Source: an uncultured Spartobacteria bacterium (GTDB lineage Bacteria; Verrucomicrobiota; Verrucomicrobiia; Chthoniobacterales; UBA6821). From it: 38,728 nucleotides of DNA. How positions within the stretch are numbered: position 1 is the stretch's first letter; each line of letters opens with the position of its first letter. The notes beneath the pieces are model-generated. The model did not search any database. It was not told where the DNA came from and saw only the letters and a list, made by a program, of their open reading frames with translations. The stretch spans positions 1 through 38,728 of the forward strand of contig CAIZIQ010000021.1 of NCBI GenBank assembly GCA_903933015.1. The letters run 5' to 3'. Both the position numbers and the translations under genes were made by a program. This document shows positions 5,474 to 18,801 of the stretch, piece after piece.

Positions 5474-6064
5474 GTGCGTTTTCAGCAACCCAATCAGATC
5501 AATCACACTGGTTTCCTGCTCGTGGCGCTACCCACCCTATTGGACCCGAATTTCCGCCGCTCCATCCTTTTCTTGACCCATCATGATCCGACGGAGGGCG
5601 CGATGGGCTTCATCATGAATCGACCCCGGCAAGAAAGTCTGGGAGATCTGACCGAAGCACCGGGAGGGCTTTCTGGAGTCCCGGTATTCGAGGGAGGTCC
5701 TGTGGAGCCCCAGAACCTGATCCTCACTCGACTGCTCTGGAAGGAAAGCGGAATTCGTTTCCAGTCGCTTGGCGTCGAGGATTTTTTGCCGCGGGAGCCT
5801 CAAGGAGATTCCGATCCCGAGAGTCACCATCAAAACTTAGGTAATAACCTCAGGGCTTTCACCGGGTATGCCGGATGGTCGGCCGGACAACTAGAGAGGG
5901 AAATCACTGAAAAGTCATGGCACCTCCTCAAGCCCACCGAGGCAATGCTGCTTCCGGTGACAACCCAGGAGGAGGGCGTAAATCGCTGGAAATCGGTGAT
6001 GAAAGATCTTGGCCCTTGGCACCACCTGCTTGCCCAGGCCCCGGATGATCTCTCCTTGAATTAA
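5474..6064 (+). CDS. yqgE: YqgE/AlgH family protein (DUF179)
   Basis: LLVA.P.L.DPNFRRSI...GAMGFIMNRP...VFEGGPV...RAFTGYAGWSAGQLEREI...W...P.D.SLN; GTG start uncertain. Confidence 0.92.
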   Translation: MRFQQPNQINHTGFLLVALPTLLDPNFRRSILFLTHHDPTEGAMGFIMNRPRQESLGDLTEAPGGLSGVPVFEGGPVEPQNLILTRLLWKESGIRFQSLGVEDFLPREPQGDSDPESHHQNLGNNLRAFTGYAGWSAGQLEREITEKSWHLLKPTEAMLLPVTTQEEGVNRWKSVMKDLGPWHHLLAQAPDDLSLN

Positions 6065-6072
6065 ATTCCGCG

Positions 6073-7068
6073 TCAGATTTTTCCTTGCTGGCGCAACCAG
6101 TCAGCGGTTGCGGCAAGGGTCTGCCTGAGTTTTTTGGAAGGTTTCCAGCCGAAGTGCTGGGAAAAGGGGGTCTCATCGCAGACCCACCGATCAGGCAGGA
6201 TTTCCCTGACGCGATCCCGGCCGAGGCTGGGAGCCGATGCACGCCAAGAAGGCACGGCGTCGATCAGCAGGGATGCCAACCTGACGGCAACTTGCGGAAC
6301 CGAGAGAGTGAATCCCCTCGCCCCGATGACCTCGGCTGCCGTGGAAATGAGTTCCGAATCCGTGATCGTGTCCTCCGACCCAAGGTAAAAGGGGCCATAC
6401 TGACCTGTTCTATCCCAGTCGGTGGATAGCACCGCAAGGATAGCCCGACAGAGATCGTCGACATCGATCCAGCTGTAGTGCTTTGCAGCGAAGCCTGGCT
6501 TGATCCGGACGGCGCCTTTGGCCATCTGGAACAAGGGAACGGTAGCGCTATCCCTCGGCCCCAGAACCATTGGGGGACGAAGTATCATGAGACGACGTCC
6601 CAGACGGTTTCGGAGTTCTCTCTCCATCGCCAGCTTGGATGCTCCATAGAAAGACACCGGCCGGTTATCATGATCAGACGTGCGTGCCACGGCACGCTTG
6701 GGTGTGGGCCCACCTGCTGCAAGCGATGAGAGAACGATGACCCGCGCAGTCCGTGGCAGTTGCGCCACCAGGCGAAGAGTTCCCTCCACATTGGTCTGAA
6801 AATAATCCTCCCTGCGCCTGCCGAAGAGAAGACCGGCGGCATGGATGACAACATCGGGCGCGGCATCCCGGGGAAGTTCCCAGAAATCACCTCTCACGCT
6901 GGTGATCACCATTCTTTCGTCGGCAATCCCCTCATCCTCCAATTGGGCACGGAGTTTTTCAGGGTTACGGACAGGAAGAAGAATACGGCTCCAGCGAGGA
7001 TGCCGCCGGAGATGAAGCAGGAGATTCCTCCCCACAAATCCTGTGGAACCGGTGATCAGCAGTTCCAT
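6073..7068 (-). CDS. NAD-dependent epimerase/dehydratase (extended SDR); candidate ceramide/3-keto-sphingoid reductase (CerR-like)
   Basis: ITGSTGFVG Rossmann motif, HAAG, SSLAA, YGASK catalytic motif; third gene after spt and the GNAT. ATG 7068 chosen over TTG 7113. Confidence 0.8.
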   Translation of the reverse strand: MELLITGSTGFVGRNLLLHLRRHPRWSRILLPVRNPEKLRAQLEDEGIADERMVITSVRGDFWELPRDAAPDVVIHAAGLLFGRRREDYFQTNVEGTLRLVAQLPRTARVIVLSSLAAGGPTPKRAVARTSDHDNRPVSFYGASKLAMERELRNRLGRRLMILRPPMVLGPRDSATVPLFQMAKGAVRIKPGFAAKHYSWIDVDDLCRAILAVLSTDWDRTGQYGPFYLGSEDTITDSELISTAAEVIGARGFTLSVPQVAVRLASLLIDAVPSWRASAPSLGRDRVREILPDRWVCDETPFSQHFGWKPSKKLRQTLAATADWLRQQGKI

Positions 7069-7119
7069 AAAGGGATGTCGCGATTCCGGGTGATCGTAAC
7101 GATCAAACGCCAAACTCTG

Positions 7120-8274
7120 CTACGACAGAGGCTTCTCGTAGAGTTCGTACGTGCGGGATCGATGGCCTCCCATCAGTTCCGCCGCCTCAAGAATCTCGGT
7201 GTTGTTGGCCTCGACCCAAGAGACTTCGGAAAGTTCATACTTGGCCTTTGCAATGCGGAAGCTCTCGAAAAAGAGCAGGGCACTGAGTCCCTTGTCACGG
7301 TAAGCGGGCTCAACGCCGAGAACCGTCAGACGGTCCGTCTTGATCTTCTGGAACTGGAGGCGCAGGGCCATTTCAAGGAAGCGGAAGATCCCTTTGCGGC
7401 CACGCGCTGCATGGAAGACCTCGTTCACATTGGGCAGAGCGAGCGTGAAGCCGACCTCACGGCCATCAACACAGACAAAGACGATGATGCTGGGGTCCGC
7501 AATCGCCTTGAGGTCATCGGCCGCATGCAGCAAATCCTCAAGGGCAATCGGATAAAATCCCCAGTTCCGGTCCAGACACTGGTTGTAAAGGCGGTGAATC
7601 GTCTCCAACTCCTTGTTCAGGTTCTTCATATCGATCGTTCGGATCGACACCTTGTTCCTCTTCTGCAGCCAGTTGACAATCTTGGTAACGCGGGCGGCGG
7701 GCTCCCTGTGCAGCGGGATATCCCATGCATACAAAGTACGGATATTCGTCAGGCCGGCGGCCTTGTAGACACCGTCATAATAGGAAGGATTCCATGGCAT
7801 GGAGATGAAGGTGGGCCTGTCATTACCCTCCGTCAGGACTCCGCAGTCATCGTTGATCGAGGGGTTGTAAGGCCCGCGCATCACCGTCAGCCCCCTTTCC
7901 TTAAGGATCGCAGCGGCAGCATCGGCCAGAGCTCTGGCAACGGAGACATCATCGATGAAGTCAAAAAAGCCAAAGAAGCCAATCGAATCTTTATTGTAGG
8001 CGTTGTGGGAGCGGTTGACGATCGCTGCAATGCGACCGACAGGCTTGCCGTCACGATAAGCGATCAGCGGCGTGATCTCGCCGTGTTTCTTCAGAAAGAC
8101 GGATTTCGGCCCGATCAGGCCGACAACACTACCTGGAAACGGCGGAGTGAATGCCGGATCCGTTCCGTGAAGAATCTCCGGAATCTGCTCGAACTTCCTG
8201 AGCTCCGCCGCGGTGCGGCAGGGCAAAATCGAAAACGTTCCGGCGGCGGCCTGGTTCTGTGTATGCTGGGTCAT
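7120..8274 (-). CDS. Double-GNAT YghO-like protein; candidate bacterial ceramide synthase (bCerS-like)
   Basis: GRIAA.VN...GFFGFFDFIDD...MRGPYNPSINDDCGVL.EG...MPWNPSYY...LGV.P.YR..G...SWV.ANN; directly downstream of spt. Confidence 0.78.
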   Translation of the reverse strand: MTQHTQNQAAAGTFSILPCRTAAELRKFEQIPEILHGTDPAFTPPFPGSVVGLIGPKSVFLKKHGEITPLIAYRDGKPVGRIAAIVNRSHNAYNKDSIGFFGFFDFIDDVSVARALADAAAAILKERGLTVMRGPYNPSINDDCGVLTEGNDRPTFISMPWNPSYYDGVYKAAGLTNIRTLYAWDIPLHREPAARVTKIVNWLQKRNKVSIRTIDMKNLNKELETIHRLYNQCLDRNWGFYPIALEDLLHAADDLKAIADPSIIVFVCVDGREVGFTLALPNVNEVFHAARGRKGIFRFLEMALRLQFQKIKTDRLTVLGVEPAYRDKGLSALLFFESFRIAKAKYELSEVSWVEANNTEILEAAELMGGHRSRTYELYEKPLS

Positions 8275-9460
8275 CGAAAGTTCCTAGTTCTCTCGCAATT
8301 CTGGCGAAAATGTCGAGCACCTTGTCGAGGTCCTCATCGGTATGGGTCGACATGAAGCTGGTACGGACGATCGCCTCTCCGTAGCGGACGGCCGGATAAA
8401 TGGCCGGAATAGCAAAAACCCCCTCCTCAAAGAGACGCTGTGCAAAGGCGAAGGCCTTGGCTTCGCTGCCGATGAGGATCGGAACGATAGGGCTCTGGGT
8501 GGATCCGATCTTGAAACCTATCGACTTGAAGCCCTCGTGCATCTTGCGGGTGTTCTTCCAGAGCATCTCGATACGCTCCGGCTCGGACTGCATGATTTGG
8601 AGAGCCTTGAGAACTCCACCGGTCACGGCTGGAGCAAGCGAGGCAGTAAAGATGAAGCAGCGGGCCTTGTGCTTCACGAACTCTATTAGTTCGTTTGATC
8701 CGGAGATGAACCCGCCCATGGAGCCGAAGGACTTGGAAAAGGTTCCCATGACGATCTCGACATCGTCATTGACTCCGAAATGATGAGCCACACCGCGTCC
8801 CTGAGGACCGACCACACCGAGTGAATGAGCCTCGTCGACATACATGACGGCACCGTATTCCTTGGCAGCCTTTACCATCGGAGGCAGATCAGCCATATCG
8901 CCAGACATACTGAAGACACCATCCATGATGATCAGACGTCCGGACTCCTCGGGGATTCGTTTGAGGCGATTGCGGAGGGCATCCACCGAGTTGTGACGGT
9001 AGGGAACCAGCTTGGCTGGAGCGACCTGGCATCCCTCAATGATCGATGCATGGTTCTCACGGTCGCAGAGAATAAAGTCATCGGCTTCGGTCAGTGCTGC
9101 AAGAGCCCCCTGGTTGGCAAAGAAACCGGTGGAGAACAGAAGGGCGCTTTCACGACCAAGGAACGCGGCCAACGCCTCCTCCAACTCATTATGGAGAGAG
9201 ATCGTGCCATTCAGGAGACGGGAACCGGTGCATCCGGCTCCGAACTTGCGGGTCGCATCGATGGCCGCCTCGACAACCCGGGGATCCTGAGCCAAGCCGA
9301 GGTAGTTGTTCGAGCCGATCATGATCTTCTCCTCGCCGCCGCAAACGACATGATTCCCGTAGCTCTGCTCGATGCAACGGAAATAGGGGTAGAATCCCTG
9401 GGCGCGCGCGTCCGCGGAATCTCTATACTCTCGGCACTTCTGGAATAGGTCTCTGGCCAT
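8129..9460 (-). CDS. spt: Serine palmitoyltransferase-like alpha-oxoamine synthase (PLP-dependent)
   Basis: YPYFR..., MIGSNNYLGL, GCTGSRLLNGT, DRENHASI, DGVFSMSGD, DEAH, GTFSKSF (PLP lysine). The YPYFR N-terminus, the GTFSKS motif and the gene context favour SPT over BioF/Kbl. The last ~45 aa overlap the next gene. Confidence 0.85.
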   Translation of the reverse strand: MARDLFQKCREYRDSADARAQGFYPYFRCIEQSYGNHVVCGGEEKIMIGSNNYLGLAQDPRVVEAAIDATRKFGAGCTGSRLLNGTISLHNELEEALAAFLGRESALLFSTGFFANQGALAALTEADDFILCDRENHASIIEGCQVAPAKLVPYRHNSVDALRNRLKRIPEESGRLIIMDGVFSMSGDMADLPPMVKAAKEYGAVMYVDEAHSLGVVGPQGRGVAHHFGVNDDVEIVMGTFSKSFGSMGGFISGSNELIEFVKHKARCFIFTASLAPAVTGGVLKALQIMQSEPERIEMLWKNTRKMHEGFKSIGFKIGSTQSPIVPILIGSEAKAFAFAQRLFEEGVFAIPAIYPAVRYGEAIVRTSFMSTHTDEDLDKVLDIFARIARELGTFDDPAYTEPGRRRNVFDFALPHRGGAQEVRADSGDSSRNGSGIHSAVSR

Positions 9461-9556
9461 GAAGAATTGTGGGTAAAATTCGCAGGAATCGGCGGGCGTG
9501 TAAACCCTTTCATTCTCCGTTAATGTGAGACAGTTCAGGGAACTGTCATGAGAAAA

Positions 9557-9630
9557 TCGGGGCGACAGGATTCGAACCTGCGACTTCTTGGTCCCAAACC
9601 AAGCGCTCTACCAAGCTGAGCTACGCCCCG
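9557..9630 (-). tRNA. tRNA-Pro (TGG), CCA not encoded
   Basis: Minus strand CGGGGCGTAGCTCAGCTTGGTAGAGCG-CTTGG-TT-TGG-GA-CCAAG-AAGTCGCAGGTTCGAATCCTGTCGCCCCGA cloverleaf. Confidence 0.97.
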
Positions 9631-9690
9631 GAAAGCGTCGAACCTATCTGCTTAGCGCAGGAATGTGCAAGAAGCGTCTTGAGGCTCGCC

Positions 9691-10020
9691 TCAGAGTTTT
9701 TCGATGGTGACGGCTGTCCCGTAACAGAGAACTTCGGTTGCGGAAAGGTTAGCCCCGAGATCTGAGGCATCATAGCGCACCCCGACGATGGCGTTCGCCC
9801 CGAGTTCCGTGGCGTGAGAAACCATCGCGTCATAAGCATGCTGGCGGCCCTGCTCACACATCTCCGTATAGGCCCCGATGCGACCGCCGATGATGCTCTT
9901 GAGGCCGCCGAGGATTCCCTGGGCGATGGTCGGCGAGCGGACGATGATGCCGCGCACCATCCCCTTGAGGGCAGTTATCCGGTATCCGGGAATGTCAAAC
10001 GTCGTGGAGACGAGCATCAT
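9691..10020 (-). CDS. ybjQ: YbjQ / UPF0145 family protein
   Basis: MLVSTT.DIPGYRI...G.V.G..VRS...GGLKSIIGG.I..Y...R..A...M...A.ELGANAIVGVRYD...EVLCYGTAV; ATGA overlap with the upstream mutase stop. Confidence 0.93.
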   Translation of the reverse strand: MMLVSTTFDIPGYRITALKGMVRGIIVRSPTIAQGILGGLKSIIGGRIGAYTEMCEQGRQHAYDAMVSHATELGANAIVGVRYDASDLGANLSATEVLCYGTAVTIEKL

Positions 10021-11972
10021 TCCGCCCTCTGTGCGGCATCGGCCTTGAGCCACTGCCAGAGTTTTTCGAGTCCCTCGGCCACGCGTACTTTGGTGGAGGC
10101 AAGTTCTTCGGGCGAGAAGTTACCGGAAGCCGGCTTCTCGGTGGCGTAGAGATAGTATTTGATCTTGGGCTCGGTCCCGGAGGGGCGGACGGCGACTTTC
10201 CAGCCACCATCAATCTCAAAGACGATCATTGCCTCCTTGGGAATGAGTTCACCCTCGGAGTCATGAAGATCCTGGGTGGCGTAATTCAGGACGGAGAGCA
10301 CCTTGGCCCCCTCAATCTCCTTGGGCGGATTTCCGGCGTAGGAATCGACGAGTTTTTTGATCTTTGCGGCTCCCTCGGCCCCCTCGAAGGTGAGCGACTC
10401 ACCGCGCTCAAGGTAGAAGCCGTATTCGGAGTAGATCCGGTCGAGAAGGGTCACGACCGTGATTCCAAGGCTCGCGGCATAAGCCGCCACCTCGGCGAAG
10501 CAGATGACGGCGGCGTTACCATCCTTGTCCCGGACGAAGTCGCCGGTGTTGTAACCGTAGCTCTCTTCGCCGCCGAAGACGAAGAAGAGGGAGTTCTTCA
10601 ACCGTGCCTCGCGGGTCTCTTCCTCCGAGAGGTTGCGGTAATTAGCCTGGGTCTCCGCAGGGAGTTTCTCCTCGTAGGCCCGCTGTTTGGAGCCGATGTA
10701 CTTGAATCCGGTGAGTGTCTCGACGCACTTCACGCCGAATCCGAGGGCGATCTCCTTCTGAAGATCCGTGGTGACCAGGCTCTTGATCACGACTGCATGG
10801 TCGCGGTTGGCATCATTCAGGATTCCTTTTTCAAAGAGCCTCTTCAGGCGGTACCAGACCATCACGGATCCAATCTGATTACCCGTCAGCAGAACAAGCT
10901 TGCCCGAGGCATCACGCGCCGCCACGCCCATACGGTCATCATCGGGATCGGTGGCCTGAACAAGATCCGCCTTCTCGATCTCGGCCAGTTCCATGCCGAG
11001 TTTCAGTGCCTCGGGATACTCGGGATTGGGCGACTTGACCGTTGGGAAAAGACCATCGGGCACCATCTGGGAGGGAACAGGCCAGCACTCGACGCCGAGG
11101 CGGTGGAGCATCGGGACGATGATCACGCCTCCAACCCCGTGGAGAGGGGTGAAGACGGTCTTGAGCGGGGGGGTCCGGCGAAAGAGTTCCGGATCAACGA
11201 TCAGCTTCTCGAGACGAGCCATGTACGCCTCGTCGATTTCTCGGCCGATCTTGATCACCTTCCCCCTCTTGCCTTCCGGAAGGGGCTCGTAGGAATCATC
11301 GCCCGCGTTGACCAGATCGATGATTCCCTGGTCATGGGGAGCCACCACCTGGCCGCCGTCATCGAAGTAGACCTTATAGCCGTTGTAGCCCGGAGGATTA
11401 TGACTGGCGGTAATATTGATGCCTGCTGCGGCATTCTTGTAACGGACGGCAAAGGAGAGTTCGGGCGTGGAGCGCGGTCCTTCAAAAAGGAGCGCATCAC
11501 AGCCGAGATCAGTCATGACCTTGGCGGCCAGGTCAGCGAACTCCCGGGAGAAGAATCGCGTATCATAGCTGATCGCAATGGAGGGACGCCCTGGACGATT
11601 CTCACGCTCATGCCACTGGCGCACATAGGTGGCGAGCCCACGGGTGGCGCGGGCGATATTGTAGTCGTTCATTGCATTCGTGCCGATGCAGGCGTGCTCC
11701 GGGCGGCCGTCGGGACGCCCTAGTCCCGCCTCGGTTTTCGTGACAACCTCACCGATCGTCTTGCCACGGAGCCCTCCAGTACCAAACGCCATGGCACGGA
11801 AAAAGCGGTTGTTCAGCTCGTCCCAGCGTCCGGCTTGAGCCAACTCCCCGATCACCGCTTCAGCCAGGGGAGAGGTGCCTCGGGCAAGCATCTTGCGGAT
11901 GTTCTCCGCTGAGGAATCGAGAAGGGTTCCCGCGGCCTCGGCCGTGGCGATGGAATCGAGGAGTGTCGACAT
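10017..11972 (-). CDS. pgm: Phosphoglucomutase/phosphomannomutase family phospho-sugar mutase
   Basis: FGTGGLRG, ITASHNP (phosphoserine), DPDDDR (metal loop), GGEESYG, RPSGTEPKIKYY; ATG 11972 chosen. Confidence 0.95.
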   Translation of the reverse strand: MSTLLDSIATAEAAGTLLDSSAENIRKMLARGTSPLAEAVIGELAQAGRWDELNNRFFRAMAFGTGGLRGKTIGEVVTKTEAGLGRPDGRPEHACIGTNAMNDYNIARATRGLATYVRQWHERENRPGRPSIAISYDTRFFSREFADLAAKVMTDLGCDALLFEGPRSTPELSFAVRYKNAAAGINITASHNPPGYNGYKVYFDDGGQVVAPHDQGIIDLVNAGDDSYEPLPEGKRGKVIKIGREIDEAYMARLEKLIVDPELFRRTPPLKTVFTPLHGVGGVIIVPMLHRLGVECWPVPSQMVPDGLFPTVKSPNPEYPEALKLGMELAEIEKADLVQATDPDDDRMGVAARDASGKLVLLTGNQIGSVMVWYRLKRLFEKGILNDANRDHAVVIKSLVTTDLQKEIALGFGVKCVETLTGFKYIGSKQRAYEEKLPAETQANYRNLSEEETREARLKNSLFFVFGGEESYGYNTGDFVRDKDGNAAVICFAEVAAYAASLGITVVTLLDRIYSEYGFYLERGESLTFEGAEGAAKIKKLVDSYAGNPPKEIEGAKVLSVLNYATQDLHDSEGELIPKEAMIVFEIDGGWKVAVRPSGTEPKIKYYLYATEKPASGNFSPEELASTKVRVAEGLEKLWQWLKADAAQRAE

Positions 11973-12026
11973 GAGGGAAGGTTTAAGCGTGAATGACCTC
12001 CGTTTCAAAGCGTTTCAAAGCACAAG

Positions 12027-12845
12027 ATGCAGTTTCATCAGATATTCGGCAAATATAGGGCCATCTTCTCGATCGGCCTTCAGAACACTTTTGTCTACCG
12101 CTGGAACTTTTTGCTCCGTTCGCTCTTTGCCCTAGTCCCGCTTTTTGGAACGGTCTTTGTCTGGCGCGCCATCTACGGGGGTACCTCGGGAACGATCGCC
12201 GGATACGACTTTGGTCAGATGGTCTTCTATTTTCTCGTGATCCTGCTGGTGGACAACCTGATCACTCCCACCGAGGACGAATGGCAGATCGCCGCGGAAA
12301 TCCGAGAGGGCCAGTTGAGCTCCTTCCTGCTGAAGCCGTTTGATTTTCTCGCCTACCGGTCCTGTATTTTTGTCGGCTCCCGCCTGCTTTACACCATGGT
12401 CACCCTCCTCCCGGTGTTAGCCGTCTTCTGGTGGTACCGACAGTATCTCGAGTGGCCCTCCCATGCCTCCACCTGGGGATTATTCGCGATCAGCCTCGTC
12501 ATGGCGGGGGCGATCCAGTTCCTGATCGCCTACGCCCTCGCGATGCTGGCCTTCTGGATTCTCGAGATCTCGACCGTGGTATTCATTCTCTACTCCTTCG
12601 AATATTTCCTGAGCGGAAAACTTTTCCCTCTCGACACGGTTCCCGGAGTCGCAGGAACGATCCTTCGTCTGCTCCCCTTCCCCTACGAAGTCTATTTTCC
12701 CGTGGCAGTGCTCATGGAAAAAATCCAAGGACCCCGGCTCTGGCATGGGCTGATCATCCAGGCGACCTGGGTGCTACTCTGTTTCCTGCTGGCCCGGGGC
12801 CTCTGGCGCTCGGGTGTGAGACGCTACGAGGCCGTGGGGATTTAG
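12027..12845 (+). CDS. ABC-2 family transporter permease (DUF990-like)
   Basis: YRWNF...IYG...IAGYDF..M..Y...I..EIREG.LS.FLLKP...LSG.LFPL...LPF.Y..YFP...W..G..RYEAVG; several hydrophobic helices. Confidence 0.88.
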   Translation: MQFHQIFGKYRAIFSIGLQNTFVYRWNFLLRSLFALVPLFGTVFVWRAIYGGTSGTIAGYDFGQMVFYFLVILLVDNLITPTEDEWQIAAEIREGQLSSFLLKPFDFLAYRSCIFVGSRLLYTMVTLLPVLAVFWWYRQYLEWPSHASTWGLFAISLVMAGAIQFLIAYALAMLAFWILEISTVVFILYSFEYFLSGKLFPLDTVPGVAGTILRLLPFPYEVYFPVAVLMEKIQGPRLWHGLIIQATWVLLCFLLARGLWRSGVRRYEAVGI

Positions 12846-13424
12846 CAGACTCCCGAGGAAGGATTCGTGCACCGGCAGATGCTCGGGAATGATCTGTACC
12901 ATGGCACCGGTGGAAACCCGGTCGCAGAGCGCCGCCACATCGGTGGAGCGCATCCGGATGCAGCCGAAGCTGGCAGGGCGACCTAGAAGCTTTTCCTGCG
13001 GCGTCCCATGAATATAGATGCCCCGGTTGAAGGCATTCCTATTGCCGGGTTCCGCACCCTCAAGCCACAGGATACGGGTCACGATGGGATCGCGTCCCGG
13101 GGCGTTGGGGCGGAGCACCTCACCGGTGGGCACCCGGGAGTGAAAAACCGCGCCAAGCGGTTGTCCCATTCCAATCTTCATCCGAACAAAAAACTTACCG
13201 ATCGGCGTGGCATAGCTTCCAAAGCGGTCGCCAATGCCGAAACGTGAGGTGGAGACGGGATAAACCGCCTCGGTTTTCCCATTGGTCTTCAGCAGCAGCT
13301 GCTGGTCCCTAACGCTCACGATGATTTCGTGCCGAGGATCTCCGGTAACATCCGCCGCTGAAAGATTTCCGATAAGAATCGGAAGCATCACCAACAGAAG
13401 CGTTACTCTGTAGAAATTAGACAT
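12774..13424 (-). CDS. L,D-transpeptidase (YkuD family), signal peptide
   Basis: YPVSTSRFG.G...TP.G...TRILWL.G...IYIHGT...GRPASFGCIRM (catalytic His/Cys). Confidence 0.93.
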   Translation of the reverse strand: MSNFYRVTLLLVMLPILIGNLSAADVTGDPRHEIIVSVRDQQLLLKTNGKTEAVYPVSTSRFGIGDRFGSYATPIGKFFVRMKIGMGQPLGAVFHSRVPTGEVLRPNAPGRDPIVTRILWLEGAEPGNRNAFNRGIYIHGTPQEKLLGRPASFGCIRMRSTDVAALCDRVSTGAMVQIIPEHLPVHESFLGSLLNPHGLVASHTRAPEAPGQQETE

Positions 13425-13472
13425 CAAGTTGATAAGTTGGCCTTATAAGGTCAGCCCGTCAACCCCGGCGGA

Positions 13473-14042
13473 TCACTGTGACAGACTTGTAACTTTGAGC
13501 CGGCAGTTCGTAATCTCCACCTGCGCCCCGTTACCAACCACTTCGTAGAGCTTCAGGACATCTGCCGAGCGCATCCGGATACAGCCGTAGCTGACCGGAG
13601 TGCCAAGCAGCGCTTCCTGCGGCGTTCCATGGATGTAAATGCAGCGGCTGAATGCATTGCGATTGTGAGGTTCGAGACCATCGAGCCAGAGAATCCTCGT
13701 GACGATCGGATCGCGTCCCGGAGCATCAGGCGGCAGAACCTCACCGGTTGGCTTCCGGGATTTAAAAACCTCGCCGAGTGGAAAACCGTCTCCGATTTTC
13801 TTGCGAACGCAGAGATGGCCTAGGGGCGTGGCGTAACTCCCTTCTCGGTCACCCGTTCCAAACTTCGAGGTCGAGACCTTGTAGAGTGCAACCGGCTTCC
13901 CGTCATTCAGGACCAGCATCCGTTGATCCGGCACACTGACAATCAGCCGATGATGAGTATCCCCCGCACAACCGGCGAGAAAGAGCATCAGGCCGGCAAG
14001 CAGCGCCACCACTCCGCCCGTTGCCATTTTTTTGATCATCAC
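13473..14042 (-). CDS. L,D-transpeptidase (YkuD family) lipoprotein
   Basis: Lipobox LAGC; IYIHGTPQE..LG.PVSYGCIRM; paralog of the adjacent gene. Confidence 0.93.
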   Translation of the reverse strand: MMIKKMATGGVVALLAGLMLFLAGCAGDTHHRLIVSVPDQRMLVLNDGKPVALYKVSTSKFGTGDREGSYATPLGHLCVRKKIGDGFPLGEVFKSRKPTGEVLPPDAPGRDPIVTRILWLDGLEPHNRNAFSRCIYIHGTPQEALLGTPVSYGCIRMRSADVLKLYEVVGNGAQVEITNCRLKVTSLSQ

Positions 14043-15046
14043 AGCGAGGTCGCGACCTCCGCGGCAAAATAAGTCAGGATCATGTCGGCGCCGGCCCGCT
14101 TGATCGCCAGCAAGGACTCGTCACGCGTCGCTTCATAATCAAGCCACCCGAGACGCGAAGCAGCGTGAATCTGAGCATATTCACCCGAGACCTGATAGGC
14201 CGCCACGGGAAGCAACGTATGCCCGCGCACTGCACGGATGATATCAAGATAGGCCCCGGCGGGCTTCACCATCACCATGTCGGCTCCTTCCTCCTCATCG
14301 AGCGTCACCTCATGCAGGGCCTCCCGGACATTGCCGGGATCCATCTGGTAACCTCGTTTGTCGAGCTTACGCGACGATTGGCCAGAGCCGCTTTTTACCG
14401 CATCCCGGAATGGACCGTAGTAAGCCGAGGCATACTTTGCCGCGTACGCCAGAATGCCTGTCTGCTGCAGGCCCGCGGCATCGAGTGCCAAGCGGATTGC
14501 CTTCACCCGCCCATCCATCATGTCCGAGGGAGCCACGATATCGGCACCGGCCTCAGCCTGTGCGAGGGCCAATCTCTTCAATGCATCGACTGTGGAGTCA
14601 TTTTCCACATCACCACGTGCATCCAGCAATCCGTCATGCCCATGACTCGTGTAGGGATCAAGAGCTACATCCGCGATTATCGCAAGCCCGGGCGTGGCGG
14701 TTTTCACAGAGCGGATCGCCTCAAAAAGAATATTCCCGGGATCATGGGCATGGGATCCCACGCCATCCTTCCTGGAGCTTTCAATGCAGGGAAAAATTGC
14801 GATCGCACGGATCCCATTCTGCTCCAGTTTACGGCATTCCTCGGTCAGCGTGGTCACGGAGTGGCGCACCACACCAGGCATCGAGTCAACCTCTTCAGGT
14901 TTCCCGTCACCAGCGCGCACGAAAAGCGGTTGAATCAGATCATCCACCTTCAGAACCGTCTCCCGGACCAGAGAACGCACGGCGGGCGTCGCACGGTTAC
15001 GCCGCATTCTGCGGAGAAGATCCAGGGCGGTTCTTTGTTCACTCAT
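14039..15046 (-). CDS. hemB: Porphobilinogen synthase (ALA dehydratase), Asp-rich non-Zn type
   Basis: DVALDPYTSHGHDG (no Cys triad), APSDMMDGRV, YGPFRDA, MVMVKP, AAYQVSGEYA. Confidence 0.98.
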   Translation of the reverse strand: MSEQRTALDLLRRMRRNRATPAVRSLVRETVLKVDDLIQPLFVRAGDGKPEEVDSMPGVVRHSVTTLTEECRKLEQNGIRAIAIFPCIESSRKDGVGSHAHDPGNILFEAIRSVKTATPGLAIIADVALDPYTSHGHDGLLDARGDVENDSTVDALKRLALAQAEAGADIVAPSDMMDGRVKAIRLALDAAGLQQTGILAYAAKYASAYYGPFRDAVKSGSGQSSRKLDKRGYQMDPGNVREALHEVTLDEEEGADMVMVKPAGAYLDIIRAVRGHTLLPVAAYQVSGEYAQIHAASRLGWLDYEATRDESLLAIKRAGADMILTYFAAEVATSL

Positions 15047-15168
15047 CAAGGTATCTTCACCGATGAAAGTCTTGAGTCAAGGAAGGGCACTTGGGGCTAA
15101 TTGGCCTAAAAAGCTGAACTTTGCTTGAATTATCATGCGCTTAGGGCATTTTCTTCCCTCCCACTCAC

Positions 15169-15244
15169 GACCCTATCGTCCAGTGGCCTAGGACACTCCC
15201 CTTTCACGGGAGTAACACGGGTTCGAATCCCGTTAGGGTCGCCA
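15169..15244 (+). tRNA. tRNA-Glu (TTC)
   Basis: GACCCTATCGTCCAGTGGCCTAGGACA-CTCCC-CT-TTC-AC-GGGAG-TAACACGGGTTCGAATCCCGTTAGGGTCGCCA. Confidence 0.97.
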
Positions 15245-15504
15245 CGTCAGTGTCGATTGCCTTTAGGCGAATTTGAACCCGTAGGGTTTGACTGCCATGC
15301 CGCGATCAGCGGCATTTTTTTTCCGAAGGGAATCTGCAGAGCCTGCCAAAGGCAGTATCATCCCGTTAGGGTCGCCAACATTGTTGGCGAGTCCGCAGGA
15401 CATTCGAACGTAGTTCGAGCCGAGCGAAGCGAGTCAGATCATGCGTAGCATGACCCGTTAGGGCGAAGACCGAAGGTCGAAGTCAATCCCTTTAGGGTCG
15501 CCAC
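15227..15504 (+). repeat. Tandem copies of the tRNA-Glu 3' end separated by palindrome-rich spacers
   Basis: ATCCCGTTAGGGTCGCCA at 15227-15244 (the tRNA itself) and 15360-15377 (exact); ATCCCTTTAGGGTCGCCA at 15486-15503 (1 mismatch). Confidence 0.9.
15297..15322 (+). terminator. Rho-independent terminator downstream of tRNA-Glu
   Basis: ATGCCGC-GATCA-GCGGCAT followed by a T run. Confidence 0.7.
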
Positions 15505-15609
15505 TTCCGTGGTGATCGCCGAGCAGCGCGATCATCAATCCCGTATTCCCGGGCCAGGGCGCTTTCTGCCATCGTCACAGAGCCCGCCGGAGACGCAATG
15601 ATAACCCCT

Positions 15610-17001
15610 TCAAGGAGTCTTTGTACCGGTTTGGATGCAGGAGTTGGTCTGCACCTCCGCATCTTCCGCCACGAGCCATGGCCTGGCATCGGGTTGGGCA
15701 ACGGAGACAACCACATGATCCAGAATCACGTTTGTGGCATGGCGGACATACAGGACGGAGGCCGGCGGGTCCCCGACGATATTGGACTGGGGGTAGTCCT
15801 TCTCATGCTCGGGAGGTGACGGGGGAATGCTCGCCATGCCCCCGGGCATCTGAAGATAACAGTTGCGCAGGGTCACATTCCCCATCTTGGCCTCCGGAAT
15901 ACCAGTGATGGAACTGGAGGGACGGGTTTCATTGCCCGGCTCGGTCACCCGCACATTTTCGATGAGAATCCCGTCCATGGATCCCGGCAGATTACTGCGA
16001 TGGGCCAGTCGCAGGAACAGTGGCTGGGAGACACTTTTCATCTCCAGACCATCAACGGTGATGTCCTTCACGATAGAGCCGTCCACCGATTCAAGGCAGA
16101 GCCCCCCGTACTTCGCACCGCTCACCACGTTGTTGCGGAACACAATTCCCGAAACCGGACCGGCCGAGGCGGTGCCTAGCTTGATCGCGTTCGCACGGTA
16201 GGAGCGGATGGCATTGTTCTCCACGAGGATGTTTCTCAATCCCCGACCGCCGTGTGATTTCAGGCAGATGGCGTCGTCCTCGGAGTTGATGACGCAGTCG
16301 CGGATCACGACTTCTCCACAGTCGCAGATGTCGATGCCGTCGAGATTCGGACAATCAGGGGGAGCCTCCACTTTCACCCTTTCCATAAGCAGATGGGAAC
16401 ATTCGCTGTAGACCTGGGTCCACATCCTGGGATTGCGCAGGGTGATGTCACGGACCGTCACGTTCGTGCTCTGGAAAATCCTGAGCAACGAGGGACGCTC
16501 GCTCTCCACGCCCGACATCTGAACTTCCTTGCACCGTCCGTCAATCTCGCCCTCCCCGTCGATGGTCAGGTTGTTGGCAACGGCCGCGTAAAGAAGGCTC
16601 CTTTTGTTCGCACCTGCGGAGGATCCCGAGGGAAAGAGGACCGGGTAATCCGCAGCATTGGTCCCGCCGACTAGAACAGCTCCTTTGCCTAGATGAAACG
16701 TCATCCCTCCTTTCAGGGTTAGTTCGGCCGTAAGGTAACGTCCTGGTGAAAAAACCACACTGCCACCGCTCCCGCCACAGGCATCGATGGCCTTCTGGAT
16801 GGCCTCCGTGTCATAGGTCATCCCGTCTCCCTTCGCCCCGTAGGAACGTGGGTCGTGAATGGGCGCGGGAGGAAGAACGATCGGCGACGTGGAATTGGTC
16901 AACCGCGCGACCGGCTGCTCCCACCATCGGGAATTTTCAATTTGATCGGCAGGGGTGGAGGTACCCAGCAGGAAGGCGGCAAGAATCAGGGGGGGAATCA
17001 T
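15610..17001 (-). CDS. Glycoside hydrolase family 28 (polygalacturonase-like beta-helix), secreted
   Basis: Signal peptide; YGAKGDG..YDT.AIQKAID; G.GEIDG; NLDGIDI; SEDDAICLKS; IKLGT. Confidence 0.88.
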   Translation of the reverse strand: MIPPLILAAFLLGTSTPADQIENSRWWEQPVARLTNSTSPIVLPPAPIHDPRSYGAKGDGMTYDTEAIQKAIDACGGSGGSVVFSPGRYLTAELTLKGGMTFHLGKGAVLVGGTNAADYPVLFPSGSSAGANKRSLLYAAVANNLTIDGEGEIDGRCKEVQMSGVESERPSLLRIFQSTNVTVRDITLRNPRMWTQVYSECSHLLMERVKVEAPPDCPNLDGIDICDCGEVVIRDCVINSEDDAICLKSHGGRGLRNILVENNAIRSYRANAIKLGTASAGPVSGIVFRNNVVSGAKYGGLCLESVDGSIVKDITVDGLEMKSVSQPLFLRLAHRSNLPGSMDGILIENVRVTEPGNETRPSSSITGIPEAKMGNVTLRNCYLQMPGGMASIPPSPPEHEKDYPQSNIVGDPPASVLYVRHATNVILDHVVVSVAQPDARPWLVAEDAEVQTNSCIQTGTKTP

Positions 17002-17116
17002 GGAGATATGTTCTGTGGGCTGTTAATTGAAAGTTACCTTGCTGTCAAAAGGATGAACTTCCCTAAAACCGCGATCTCGCCCCTGTGCCTGTGGGGTATG
17101 CGATCATCAAATCCGG

Positions 17117-18277
17117 TTAGGGGAGCCACTTCCTGATATCTGGTTTTTCCGACATCAGGATCATGCAGAGCATGTTGACCGAATCCGAGTAGTAGTCTTC
17201 GTGCTTCTTCTCCCCGTAGGAGAAAACGGCCTCTTCCCAGCCCGTGTTCCCCAGTGCCTTCGCCGCGACACCCGTCGGTGCAATGAAACAGGCGGTTTCG
17301 AAGTCACTGTTCCGCACGGGAGATCCATCCAGGTGATACCCGGCCCGGAACTCTTCCGGCGCATGGAGGACTCCGCCTATCCACCCCACCAACGGTTTCA
17401 GAACTTTTCCGGCACGTCCATCCTTCAGGGCCAGTTCCGCCCAACCGATGCGCCAGGGCACCCGGCAGGCATTGTAGTAGTAGTCCCCGTCGCTATGACC
17501 CTCCAGAAAACCGGACTGCACCGGAACCCACCGCCCCTCTTTTTGCACCGCAAAATCGGGAACAAGCCCCGTCCGGGGTGCTGCACCCTCCTGTAGCTCC
17601 CCGAGGATCGCATAGCACCGGCTCTCCACCTTCTCCCAGACCGGATCACCGGTCGCGACACCGAATGCCCGGAAGTGCGTCGGCATGAAGTCCGAGGGTC
17701 GCGTCTGACCAGGCATCTCATTCCAATCGCCGAGCCGGAGCGATCCATCGGGACGCACCAGGGAGACGGCAATGTTCCCGATCAAGGTTTTGGCCTCCGA
17801 TAGATAATGTTCCTCTCCCCAGCGATGATGAGCCAGGAGAAGGGCATAGGCCATATCGAGATCGCCGTCGGTGGCGCTGTCATCCCGAGGCGGCTTCTCA
17901 TTTGCCGGGATCTTCCAGCACATGAAGGCGTGATTGATACTCGAGGGAAATTGCTTCCGGAATGCATCAAGCCCATCGAAATACTTTTTTGCATCCGGAT
18001 CCCTGTCGGCCATGAAGACCGTGATGAGCATGCCGTATCCCATCGCCTCGGAGACGGTCGCCCCCTTGCCGTTGTAGTCGACCTTCCACGCTCCGGGAAA
18101 GCGCACCGAGGGAATCAGGTATTTACCCTTCCAGAAGGAATAATAGCTCTCCACGGCCCCCTCCCTGGCACTCGTGTTGGGATCGTGGGTGACCTCCGCC
18201 GCCTGCAGCGGGAGCGGCAAAGCCGTGAGTGCCGCCAACGGCAGGCTGAGGAGCAAAGCCACCCGAGTTCCCTTCAT
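17117..18277 (-). CDS. Glycoside hydrolase family 8 (endoglucanase/chitosanase/lichenase-like), secreted
   Basis: TVSEAMGYGM, DSATDGDLDMAYALL, TRPSDFM, TGLVPDF, YYYNACRVPWR, YYSDS. The start is ATG 18277 (MKGTRVALLL signal peptide, ATGA overlap with the recO stop). Confidence 0.92.
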   Translation of the reverse strand: MKGTRVALLLSLPLAALTALPLPLQAAEVTHDPNTSAREGAVESYYSFWKGKYLIPSVRFPGAWKVDYNGKGATVSEAMGYGMLITVFMADRDPDAKKYFDGLDAFRKQFPSSINHAFMCWKIPANEKPPRDDSATDGDLDMAYALLLAHHRWGEEHYLSEAKTLIGNIAVSLVRPDGSLRLGDWNEMPGQTRPSDFMPTHFRAFGVATGDPVWEKVESRCYAILGELQEGAAPRTGLVPDFAVQKEGRWVPVQSGFLEGHSDGDYYYNACRVPWRIGWAELALKDGRAGKVLKPLVGWIGGVLHAPEEFRAGYHLDGSPVRNSDFETACFIAPTGVAAKALGNTGWEEAVFSYGEKKHEDYYSDSVNMLCMILMSEKPDIRKWLP

Positions 18278-18801
18278 GAGATCTGGGCCAGAAGGCGTGA
18301 ACGGTTTTCTGGAAGCTTGTGGGCCACGGAGGCCAGGGAGCGGTATGCGGGGATCGAGGGATCGTGGATCCCGAGGGCCTTGGCGAGTTCCGCTTCGAAA
18401 TGCTCGACGGCCCGTTTCACCGGCTGATTGCCACGCAGGAAGCCCCACGCCCGTTCCAGCAATCCGAAGATTTCTGGGACGGGATGCATCGGCTCGGTGA
18501 AGAGATCGCAGAGTTCGGCGAAGTAGGAAGCGGAGAGGATCGTGGCATACGTCGCAGGAAGGGCCTCGTCCATGCAGACCGCCACCTCGCTGAGCGAGTG
18601 CAGATCGCCGCTCCTCGGCGGCTTAAAGGAAATCTCCGCCATAGTGAACAGCTCAAGCCTTCCAGCAAAGGGACTCCCCGGCTTCATGGCGCTCCGTACT
18701 GCCGTTTTCACCTTGCCGTGGCGGTCGGTCAGCCAAACAACCACCAGACTGTTCTCCGAGAAACGGTACCGACGCAGCAGGATGGCCCGCGCCTCGTTCA
18801 T
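18274..18801 (-). CDS. recO: DNA repair protein RecO (short form)
   Basis: AILLRRYRFSENSLVV.WLT..HGKV...VRSA.KP.S.FAG.LELF...SYFAEL...FE..L...LG. Confidence 0.9.
   Translation of the reverse strand: MNEARAILLRRYRFSENSLVVVWLTDRHGKVKTAVRSAMKPGSPFAGRLELFTMAEISFKPPRSGDLHSLSEVAVCMDEALPATYATILSASYFAELCDLFTEPMHPVPEIFGLLERAWGFLRGNQPVKRAVEHFEAELAKALGIHDPSIPAYRSLASVAHKLPENRSRLLAQIS

Follow-up and report, generated by a model that had tools for sequence, protein, structure and literature searches.

Introduction

The ceramide pathway of Caulobacter crescentus was reportedly described by Stankeviciute et al. in 2022. The enzymes of this pathway are Spt (CC_1162), the ceramide synthase bCerS or CerS (CC_1154) and CerR (CC_1164) (PMC11087976, PMC11324152, PMC9386255); CC_1154 and CC_1164 are named cerS and cerR in PMC11324152, and bCerS and CerR are also described in PMC11087976. 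Here we describe three adjacent minus-strand genes in a stretch of 38,728 nucleotides (positions 1 to 38,728 of contig CAIZIQ010000021.1, assembly GCA_903933015.1; hereafter, the window) from an uncultured Spartobacteria bacterium, a metagenome-assembled genome (MAG) of the order Chthoniobacterales (Verrucomicrobiota). The genes encode an alpha-oxoamine synthase (AOS) of the serine palmitoyltransferase (SPT) type, a GNAT-type N-acyltransferase related to bCerS and an extended short-chain dehydrogenase/reductase (SDR) related to CerR (Table 1). They very probably constitute a transcription unit for the (dihydro)ceramide backbone.

Two further descriptions serve as a frame for the comparison. 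Escherichia coli BL21(DE3) carries a cluster (NC_012971.2, 2989282-2994885) consisting of yghO, an acyl-AMP ligase gene, an epimerase/dehydratase gene, an acyl carrier protein (ACP) gene and spt. The function of these genes is only suggested in PMC9386255, where yghO (ECD_02850) is given as the homologue of Caulobacter CC_1154 ('aca') and ECD_02852 as that of CC_1164 ('epi'). In a survey by Ding et al. (ISME J 2024, PMC11334938), Spt-like proteins were found in 1271 MAGs from 38 phyla, 22 Verrucomicrobiota MAGs among them, and bCerS and CerR were often co-localised with the Spt-like proteins of clade B; for Bacteroidota isolates, the same paper reports that the genes are not clustered.

The locus had been singled out in an earlier note as three co-directional, tightly packed genes for a pyridoxal 5'-phosphate (PLP)-dependent synthase of the SPT type, a 'YghO-like double-GNAT' protein and an extended, CerR-like SDR in a 'probable verrucomicrobium'. 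This description was borne out in each of its parts by the comparisons presented below. Three minus-strand open reading frames (ORFs) indeed occupy positions 9460 to 6073, packed even more tightly than the note had it, with an overlap of the first two genes. The genome of origin (G000) comprises 2.33 Mb in 335 contigs and is 95% complete with 6% contamination.

The alpha-oxoamine synthase

The product of the first gene, called Spt in the following, matches the Pfam family Aminotran_1_2 (E 4.6e-61). Its top matches in the PDB were the SPT entries 8guh and 3a2b (407.8 bits, E 4.6e-121), as compared to approximately 260 bits for Kbl, 233.8 bits for the cysteate-C-fatty acyltransferase 28eh and approximately 193 bits for BioF. 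Full-length alignments were obtained with 8guh and 3a2b (residues 5-390) and also with 2x8u, in which the PLP lysine of the GTFSKS motif (K243) and the motifs NHASI and DEAHS match the solved SPTs. Like 8guh and 3a2b, the protein lacks an arginine that is present in one loop of the 2x8u/2jg2-type SPTs; we take this to be the loop called 'RPPATP'. The entries 8guh and 3a2b, whose database title is 'Serine palmitoyltransferase' only, are presumably the enzyme of Sphingobacterium multivorum.

Among the NCBIfam models, the best match was NF047600 (SerpalmtaseCFB, representing the Cytophaga-Flavobacterium-Bacteroides (CFB) type) with 495.7 bits (cut-off 640), followed by NF047599 (beta-type SPT, 399.2 bits, cut-off 500), BioF (386.6 bits), Kbl (381.4 bits) and NF047603 (alpha-type SPT, 353.4 bits, cut-off 670). 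The three SPT models were built for the CFB, beta- and alphaproteobacterial lineages. Because the score stayed below the curated cut-off of each of these equivalog models, we apply to the protein the term 'Spt-like', as used for clade B (PMC11334938), and do not classify it as an equivalog.

A maximum-likelihood (ML) tree was inferred with IQ-TREE from 36 rows, namely the AOS of the window, two paralogues from the same genome (contigs C282 and C16), Spt, Kbl and BioF of E. coli BL21, and 30 AOSs encoded next to a GNAT gene, which were picked from the 59 available so as to span phyla. The AOS of the window, the E. coli Spt and all 30 GNAT-adjacent AOSs formed a single clade (support 97/96), with Kbl, both BioFs and the C16 AOS falling outside of it. 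The paralogue on C282 is BioF-like (422 bits to bioF), so the AOS of the window is not needed for biotin synthesis. Its assignment to the SPT-type enzymes is supported at the level of the family, and serine condensation is predicted for it.

A different N-acyl amino lipid, not a true ceramide, would result if the enzyme used alanine or glycine (yielding 1-deoxy or nor-bases) or cysteate (yielding capnine-type sulfonolipids). The choice of substrate by an AOS is not safely readable from its sequence, and Spt can also accept amino acids other than serine, alanine for example (PMC10191378); the failure to reach any of the SPT equivalog cut-offs and the presence of the cysteate enzyme 28eh among the PDB relatives would fit such a product as well. 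The solved SPTs, however, scored far above 28eh, and the enzyme lies within a clade that is coupled to GNAT and SDR genes across phyla and includes the E. coli Spt. A product of this other kind is accordingly rated as quite unlikely, and serine remains the predicted substrate.

The C16 paralogue (L002, 1-3753) is a protein of 457 aa with an N-terminal extension of about 90 aa. Directly upstream of its gene lies a type I polyketide synthase (PKS) module with ketoreductase (KR) and ACP domains, truncated where the contig ends; downstream of it lies a formyltransferase-like gene. In the tree it was placed outside the Spt clade and also outside the Kbl/BioF group. The enzyme may make a PKS-derived amino lipid.

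The putative N-acyltransferase

The product of the second gene yielded a weak Pfam match to PF00583 (E 6.7e-06), a domain that was recognised in 36 of the 40 aligned members of its family. No match was found in NCBIfam, and neither NCBIfam nor Pfam holds a model specific for the family. A sequence search of the PDB returned nothing below E 0.5, and the search of the ESM Atlas returned generic GNAT clusters only. An AlphaFold2 model (predicted local distance difference test, pLDDT, 91.7; predicted template modelling score, pTM, 0.88) found its best structural matches in the tandem GNATs 2wpw, 5kf1 and 7q3a (Foldseek E 1e-14 to 3e-12) and in MshD, the template modelling (TM) scores being approximately 0.57-0.61 when normalised to the query. 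With YghO of E. coli BL21 the protein shares 30% identity over 369 of its 384 aa (E 2e-47). YghO was its only match on the BL21 chromosome and, conversely, the protein was the only match of YghO in the genome G000. Its membership in the bCerS/YghO family is supported by these comparisons, and the predicted fold, of the GNAT type with an acyl-CoA site, is in line with the 'double-GNAT' label.

The family is large: a threshold of E<=0.001 recovered 5607 cluster representatives, and one of E<=1e-30 recovered 814. Natural fusions of Spt and GNAT, from metagenomes, occur in it, two of them full-length (P0169, 780 aa, and P0197, 777 aa) and one N-truncated (P0249, 648 aa). Three more 780-aa copies of P0169 are found in JGI/IMG, ENA and MetaClust, and its representative is encoded on a contig of 819 kb. 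At locus L075, spt and GNAT are two separate genes. The GNAT match of G200, which falls in an open frame of 887 aa, was considered as a further Spt fusion and rejected, as its ORF of 689 aa is devoid of an AOS domain. Duplications of the GNAT unit were also encountered: P0121, a protein of 784 aa without an NCBIfam match, contains two such units in tandem, and G085, a genome of the same phylum, has three matches to the family, two of which lie in tandem on contig C64 (21124-22242 and 22383-23471).

The predicted reductase

The product of the third gene matches the epimerase/extended SDR family PF01370 (E 9.4e-23). Its motifs ITGSTGFVG (TGxxGxxG) and YGASK (YxxxK) both align with those of the epimerase encoded in the E. 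coli BL21 spt cluster, with which it shares 25% identity over 325 aa (E 6e-18). In the search of the BL21 genome this epimerase was the sole match at E<=0.01 (E 3.2e-11). The reverse search of G000 ranked the SDR of the window first among five matches (E 2e-11); it was the sole full-length match, and a partial hit reached 1.4e-5. Membership in the CerR/'epi' family is supported by this reciprocal relationship, the connection to CC_1164 itself being provided by PMC9386255. A reading as the hopanoid-associated epimerase HpnA was rejected (61.9 bits, cut-off 367.65).

On inspection of the N-terminus, no signal-like segment was visible, the protein starting at the Rossmann motif or 15 residues before it. 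The periplasmic step attributed to the Caulobacter CerR is therefore not evident in this SDR. The start itself is ambiguous: the ORF begins with TTG, an internal ATG at 7068 would begin the protein at MELLITGSTGFVG, and several relatives align from residue 16 onward only. Depending on the start, the gap between the GNAT and SDR genes measures 6 nt (TTG) or 51 nt (ATG).

Gene context and distribution

Species-representative genomes were scanned with a 14-row alignment of the GNAT family, and the best 80 of 560 confirmed matches are referred to as the 80 loci. The nearest of these belong to MAGs of the Chthoniobacterales and Terrimicrobiaceae, with L008 showing 90% GNAT identity, which agrees with the verrucomicrobial origin proposed earlier. 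The remaining loci are from Ignavibacteriota, Bacteroidota, Chlorobiota, Gemmatimonadota, Acidobacteriota, Planctomycetota, Elusimicrobiota, Zixiibacteriota, Cloacimonadota and others. An Spt relative was present in 59 of the 80 loci and was encoded directly upstream of the GNAT, on the same strand, in 57. Relatives of the SDR were present in 43 loci (19 directly downstream of the GNAT, 22 divergent beside spt, two elsewhere) and were thus adjacent in 41. Neither Spt nor SDR relatives were found in 19 loci, some of which are cut by contig ends.

The distribution was assessed in an order sample of 41 genomes and a phylum sample of 401 genomes, G000 included. In the order sample, the GNAT was found in 21 and the SDR in 19 genomes. 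All 19 SDR-positive genomes carry the GNAT and none of the 20 GNAT-negative genomes carries the SDR, the genomes being related and hence not independent. Because GNAT and SDR reside on different contigs in seven of the 19 genomes with both, their co-occurrence is more than adjacency. In the phylum sample, the GNAT profile matched in 41 of the 401 genomes at E<=1e-20, and in 22 of these at E<=1e-100. Spt, GNAT and SDR are thus coupled in their genomic position and in their phyletic occurrence.

The adjacency of the three genes could in principle be without functional meaning, with the AOS acting as a housekeeping enzyme of the Kbl/BioF type and GNAT and SDR acting on unrelated substrates. The comparison restricted to E. 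coli proteins, in which Kbl (256 bits) nearly equals Spt (267 bits), and the weak generic similarity of the SDR to sugar epimerases would agree with this. It is strongly disfavoured, to the point of being hardly credible, by the exclusion of Kbl and BioF from the Spt clade, the separate BioF-like gene in the genome, the conservation of the spt-then-GNAT order in many phyla, the existence of Spt-GNAT fusions and the strict co-occurrence of GNAT and SDR in the order sample.

Some genomes and loci stand out from the general picture. G090 and G114, which belong to the same order, are single-contig genomes of about 0.9 Mb and 99% completeness in which neither GNAT nor SDR was matched; another genome with the same genus assignment, 2.5 Mb in size, has both. 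The absence from G090 and G114 looks like a loss in reduced genomes. The loci L009 and L028 are on MAG contigs labelled Proteobacteria and Pseudomonadota, respectively, and both hold a cluster of the verrucomicrobial type with the same spt/GNAT overlap and Spt tail as in the window. Their identities to the window are 87% (L009) and 43% (L028) for the GNAT and 82% and 63% for Spt, and the Spt of L028 lies inside the verrucomicrobial Spt clade of the ML tree. The labels may be binning or naming errors, or the genes may have been transferred.

Organization of the locus

The coordinates of the features are compiled in Table 1.

Table 1. Features of the putative ceramide locus of the window
Feature	Position	Strand	Remarks
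spt, alpha-oxoamine synthase	8129..9460	-	443 aa ORF; YPYFR and GTFSKS motifs; catalytic domain = residues 1 to ~395
bcerS-like gene, YghO-family tandem-GNAT N-acyltransferase	7120..8274	-	384 aa ORF
cerR-like gene, extended SDR (epimerase/dehydratase type)	6073..7113	-	346 aa (TTG 7113) or 331 aa (ATG 7068)
spt/GNAT overlap, two frames	8129..8274	-	146 nt; Spt residues 396-443 and GNAT residues 1-48
tRNA-Pro (TGG)	9557..9630	-	ARAGORN; upstream boundary of the cluster

After its catalytic domain, the Spt of the window continues in a C-terminal extension of about 48 aa (396-443), which is encoded within the overlap. Regarding the Chthoniobacterales-type loci (the L008-L028 set, window included), Spt measures 423-445 aa, as compared to 395-408 aa in the 41 other Spt-bearing loci, and spt and GNAT overlap by 86-158 nt in 18 of the 19 loci. 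The exception is L020, where the genes do not overlap and Spt is nonetheless 445 aa long. The proximal part of the tail, GTFDDPAYxxPGRRxNVFDFxL, is nearly invariant and sits over the variable first 13 or so codons of the GNAT gene; the AlphaFold2 model shows disorder at residues 1-10 of the GNAT. The distal part of the tail is variable, is shortened by stop codons in four loci and sits over the conserved GNAT residues FSI..C...FE..PE..H..DP.F.PPFPGSV. The Spts of L010, L011, L023 and L025 are 423-427 aa long. Because constraint falls on one frame in the proximal part of the overlap and on the other in the distal part, the extension appears to be a genuine part of Spt that is under selection.

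The overlap probably couples the translation of spt and GNAT, and together with the extension it may help the two enzymes to cooperate. In a more specific version, the motif GTFDDPAYxxPGRRxNVFDFxL would be a docking peptide whose codons overlie, in another frame, the 13 unconstrained codons at the start of bcerS. By tethering Spt either to the membrane or to the ceramide synthase, it would allow the reactive 3-ketosphinganine to be handed over directly. This version is speculative, and we consider it unlikely. If it were true, the peptide would be the non-covalent counterpart of the Spt-bCerS fusions of other lineages, and the long overlap would also enforce a coupled, equimolar translation of both enzymes.

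Upstream, the tRNA-Pro gene is placed between spt and a gene of the YbjQ family, and 96 nt separate it from the spt ATG, within which any promoter of the unit must sit. A simple scan found no sigma-70-like site in this interval. Downstream, the cluster is followed by a plus-strand AlgH-like gene and then by rplK-rplA-rplJ-rplL.

Proposed pathway

From the enzyme families and their genomic coupling we infer which substrates are used, in which order the steps run, what is produced, that the genes form an operon and that the pathway is complete. In the first step, the PLP enzyme Spt would join L-serine and a long-chain acyl thioester in a condensation that yields 3-ketosphinganine. In the second, the tandem GNAT of the bCerS/YghO family would N-acylate the long-chain base, and in the third, the extended SDR of the CerR family would use NAD(P)H for reduction of the 3-keto group, yielding dihydroceramide.

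Genes for an ACP or an acyl-CoA ligase were not found among the Pfam-scanned neighbours (5474-18448), as the earlier note had observed for the cluster. Their absence, from which the note concluded that the acyl donor must be supplied in trans, does not amount to a gap: PMC9386255 ties the dedicated AcpR/AasR pair to the SPTs of alpha-, beta- and gammaproteobacteria, and the Spt of the window is nearest to the CFB-type model, a type for which a dedicated ACP is not expected. Given an Spt of this type and the absence of a dedicated ACP, acyl-CoA is the most likely acyl donor.

The last two steps could also proceed in the order known from eukaryotes, in which the SDR of the same gene set would reduce 3-ketosphinganine to sphinganine before the GNAT N-acylates it. 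This order, proposed by Olea-Ozuna, resembles the route of Bacteroides, is described as the original proposal in PMC11324152 and PMC9386255, and is a plausible alternative of somewhat lower probability. A true 3-ketodihydrosphingosine (3-KDS) reductase exists in Bacteroides (PMC9278070), and an SDR devoid of a visible N-terminal signal peptide could act in the cytoplasm beside Spt. On the other hand, a cerR mutant of Caulobacter accumulates oxidised ceramide and CerR is periplasmic (PMC11087976), the natural Spt-GNAT fusions agree with the acyltransferase receiving the Spt product directly, and the Bacteroides reductase BT_0972 was selected from proteins with partial homology to the 3-KDS reductases of yeast and human (PMC9278070). 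Because of the analogy to Caulobacter and the fusions, acylation followed by reduction appears slightly more likely than the reverse.

Several observations weigh against the assignment of the locus to ceramide synthesis as a single unit. Regarding the AOS, none of the three NCBIfam SPT cut-offs was reached, its lead of Spt over Kbl in the comparison with E. coli proteins is narrow, and the tree that sets it apart holds only five non-Spt reference rows, all on long branches. Regarding the SDR, its resemblance to the E. coli gene is weak, with 25% identity and a genome-search score of 43.5 bits. Of the 18 Chthoniobacterales-type loci with spt and GNAT, eight (L010, L011, L013-L015, L017, L022 and L025) are without an SDR in the fetched flanks, and in G048 and G300 a GNAT relative was found but no SDR match. 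The proteins of the window are connected to the characterised Caulobacter enzymes indirectly, via the E. coli BL21 homologues named in PMC9386255, and a promoter/terminator scan of the unit gave nothing above the expectation from shuffled sequence. With these points taken into account, a ceramide transcription unit is still the reading that we hold to be very probable.

As to the distribution of the trait, the earlier note had regarded it as not commonly characterised in Verrucomicrobiota, which overstates its rarity in view of the 22 MAGs of this phylum with Spt-like proteins in PMC11334938. A literature search, in which few subscription journals were covered, found no paper linking Chthoniobacter with ceramide and, for Verrucomicrobia(ota) and sphingolipids, no relevant paper besides PMC11334938. 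The cluster provides a well-tested case of a compact Spt/bCerS/CerR unit in Verrucomicrobiota, and the pathway would be present in about half of the sampled Chthoniobacterales genomes, as judged by the GNAT. Members of this order are common in soil and freshwater, and their cultured relatives offer a concrete target for lipidomics; L022, one of the loci with spt and GNAT, is from a MAG of an uncultured Chthoniobacter sp. The reciprocal matches connect the poorly understood YghO family of E. coli to the ceramide pathway, and the spt/bcerS overlap, together with the natural fusions, gives a handle on whether the first two enzymes form a complex.

Comparison with known systems

As in Caulobacter, the window encodes an Spt of the AOS type, a GNAT-type N-acyltransferase of about 380 aa and an extended SDR of the epimerase type, and the chemistry is likely to be alike. 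In contrast to Caulobacter, neither a dedicated ACP (AcpR) nor an acyl-ACP synthetase (AasR) is encoded, and the three genes form an uninterrupted block with overlap, while the Caulobacter cerS is located several genes from spt. The Spt of the window is also nearest to the CFB-type model and not to the alphaproteobacterial one, and it carries the clade-specific C-terminal extension. With the solved SPTs 8guh and 3a2b it shares an identical PLP lysine and identical flanking motifs, but it is longer by the residues of this extension.

Regarding E. coli BL21, YghO and the epimerase are the reciprocal best matches of the GNAT and the SDR of the window, and the Spts share a clade; the identities are 30% (GNAT), 25% (SDR) and 36% (Spt). 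The E. coli cluster differs in that it includes an ACP and a ligase gene and in that yghO is divergent. Second copies of lptF and lptG are located directly beside the E. coli spt (2989282-2997066), which recalls the sphingolipid-transport genes LptF2/LptG2 of Caulobacter (PMC11324152). Genes of the lptF/lptG type were not found among the Pfam-scanned ORFs adjoining the cluster of the window.

The locus resembles clade B of PMC11334938 in that both are genomic predictions from co-localisation, the MAGs of that survey being, unlike the genome examined here, from the Black Sea. With Bacteroides thetaiotaomicron (PMC9278070) it shares an Spt of the CFB type and, as predicted for the window, dihydroceramide as the end product; unlike the 3-KDS reductase BT_0972 of the Bacteroides route, the SDR of the window matches the epimerase-type 'epi'/CerR gene. 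Compared with these systems, the cluster adds a well-supported member to a known pathway, the established picture of which is unchanged, and the spt/GNAT overlap with the Spt tail in Chthoniobacterales constitutes a minor architectural variant.

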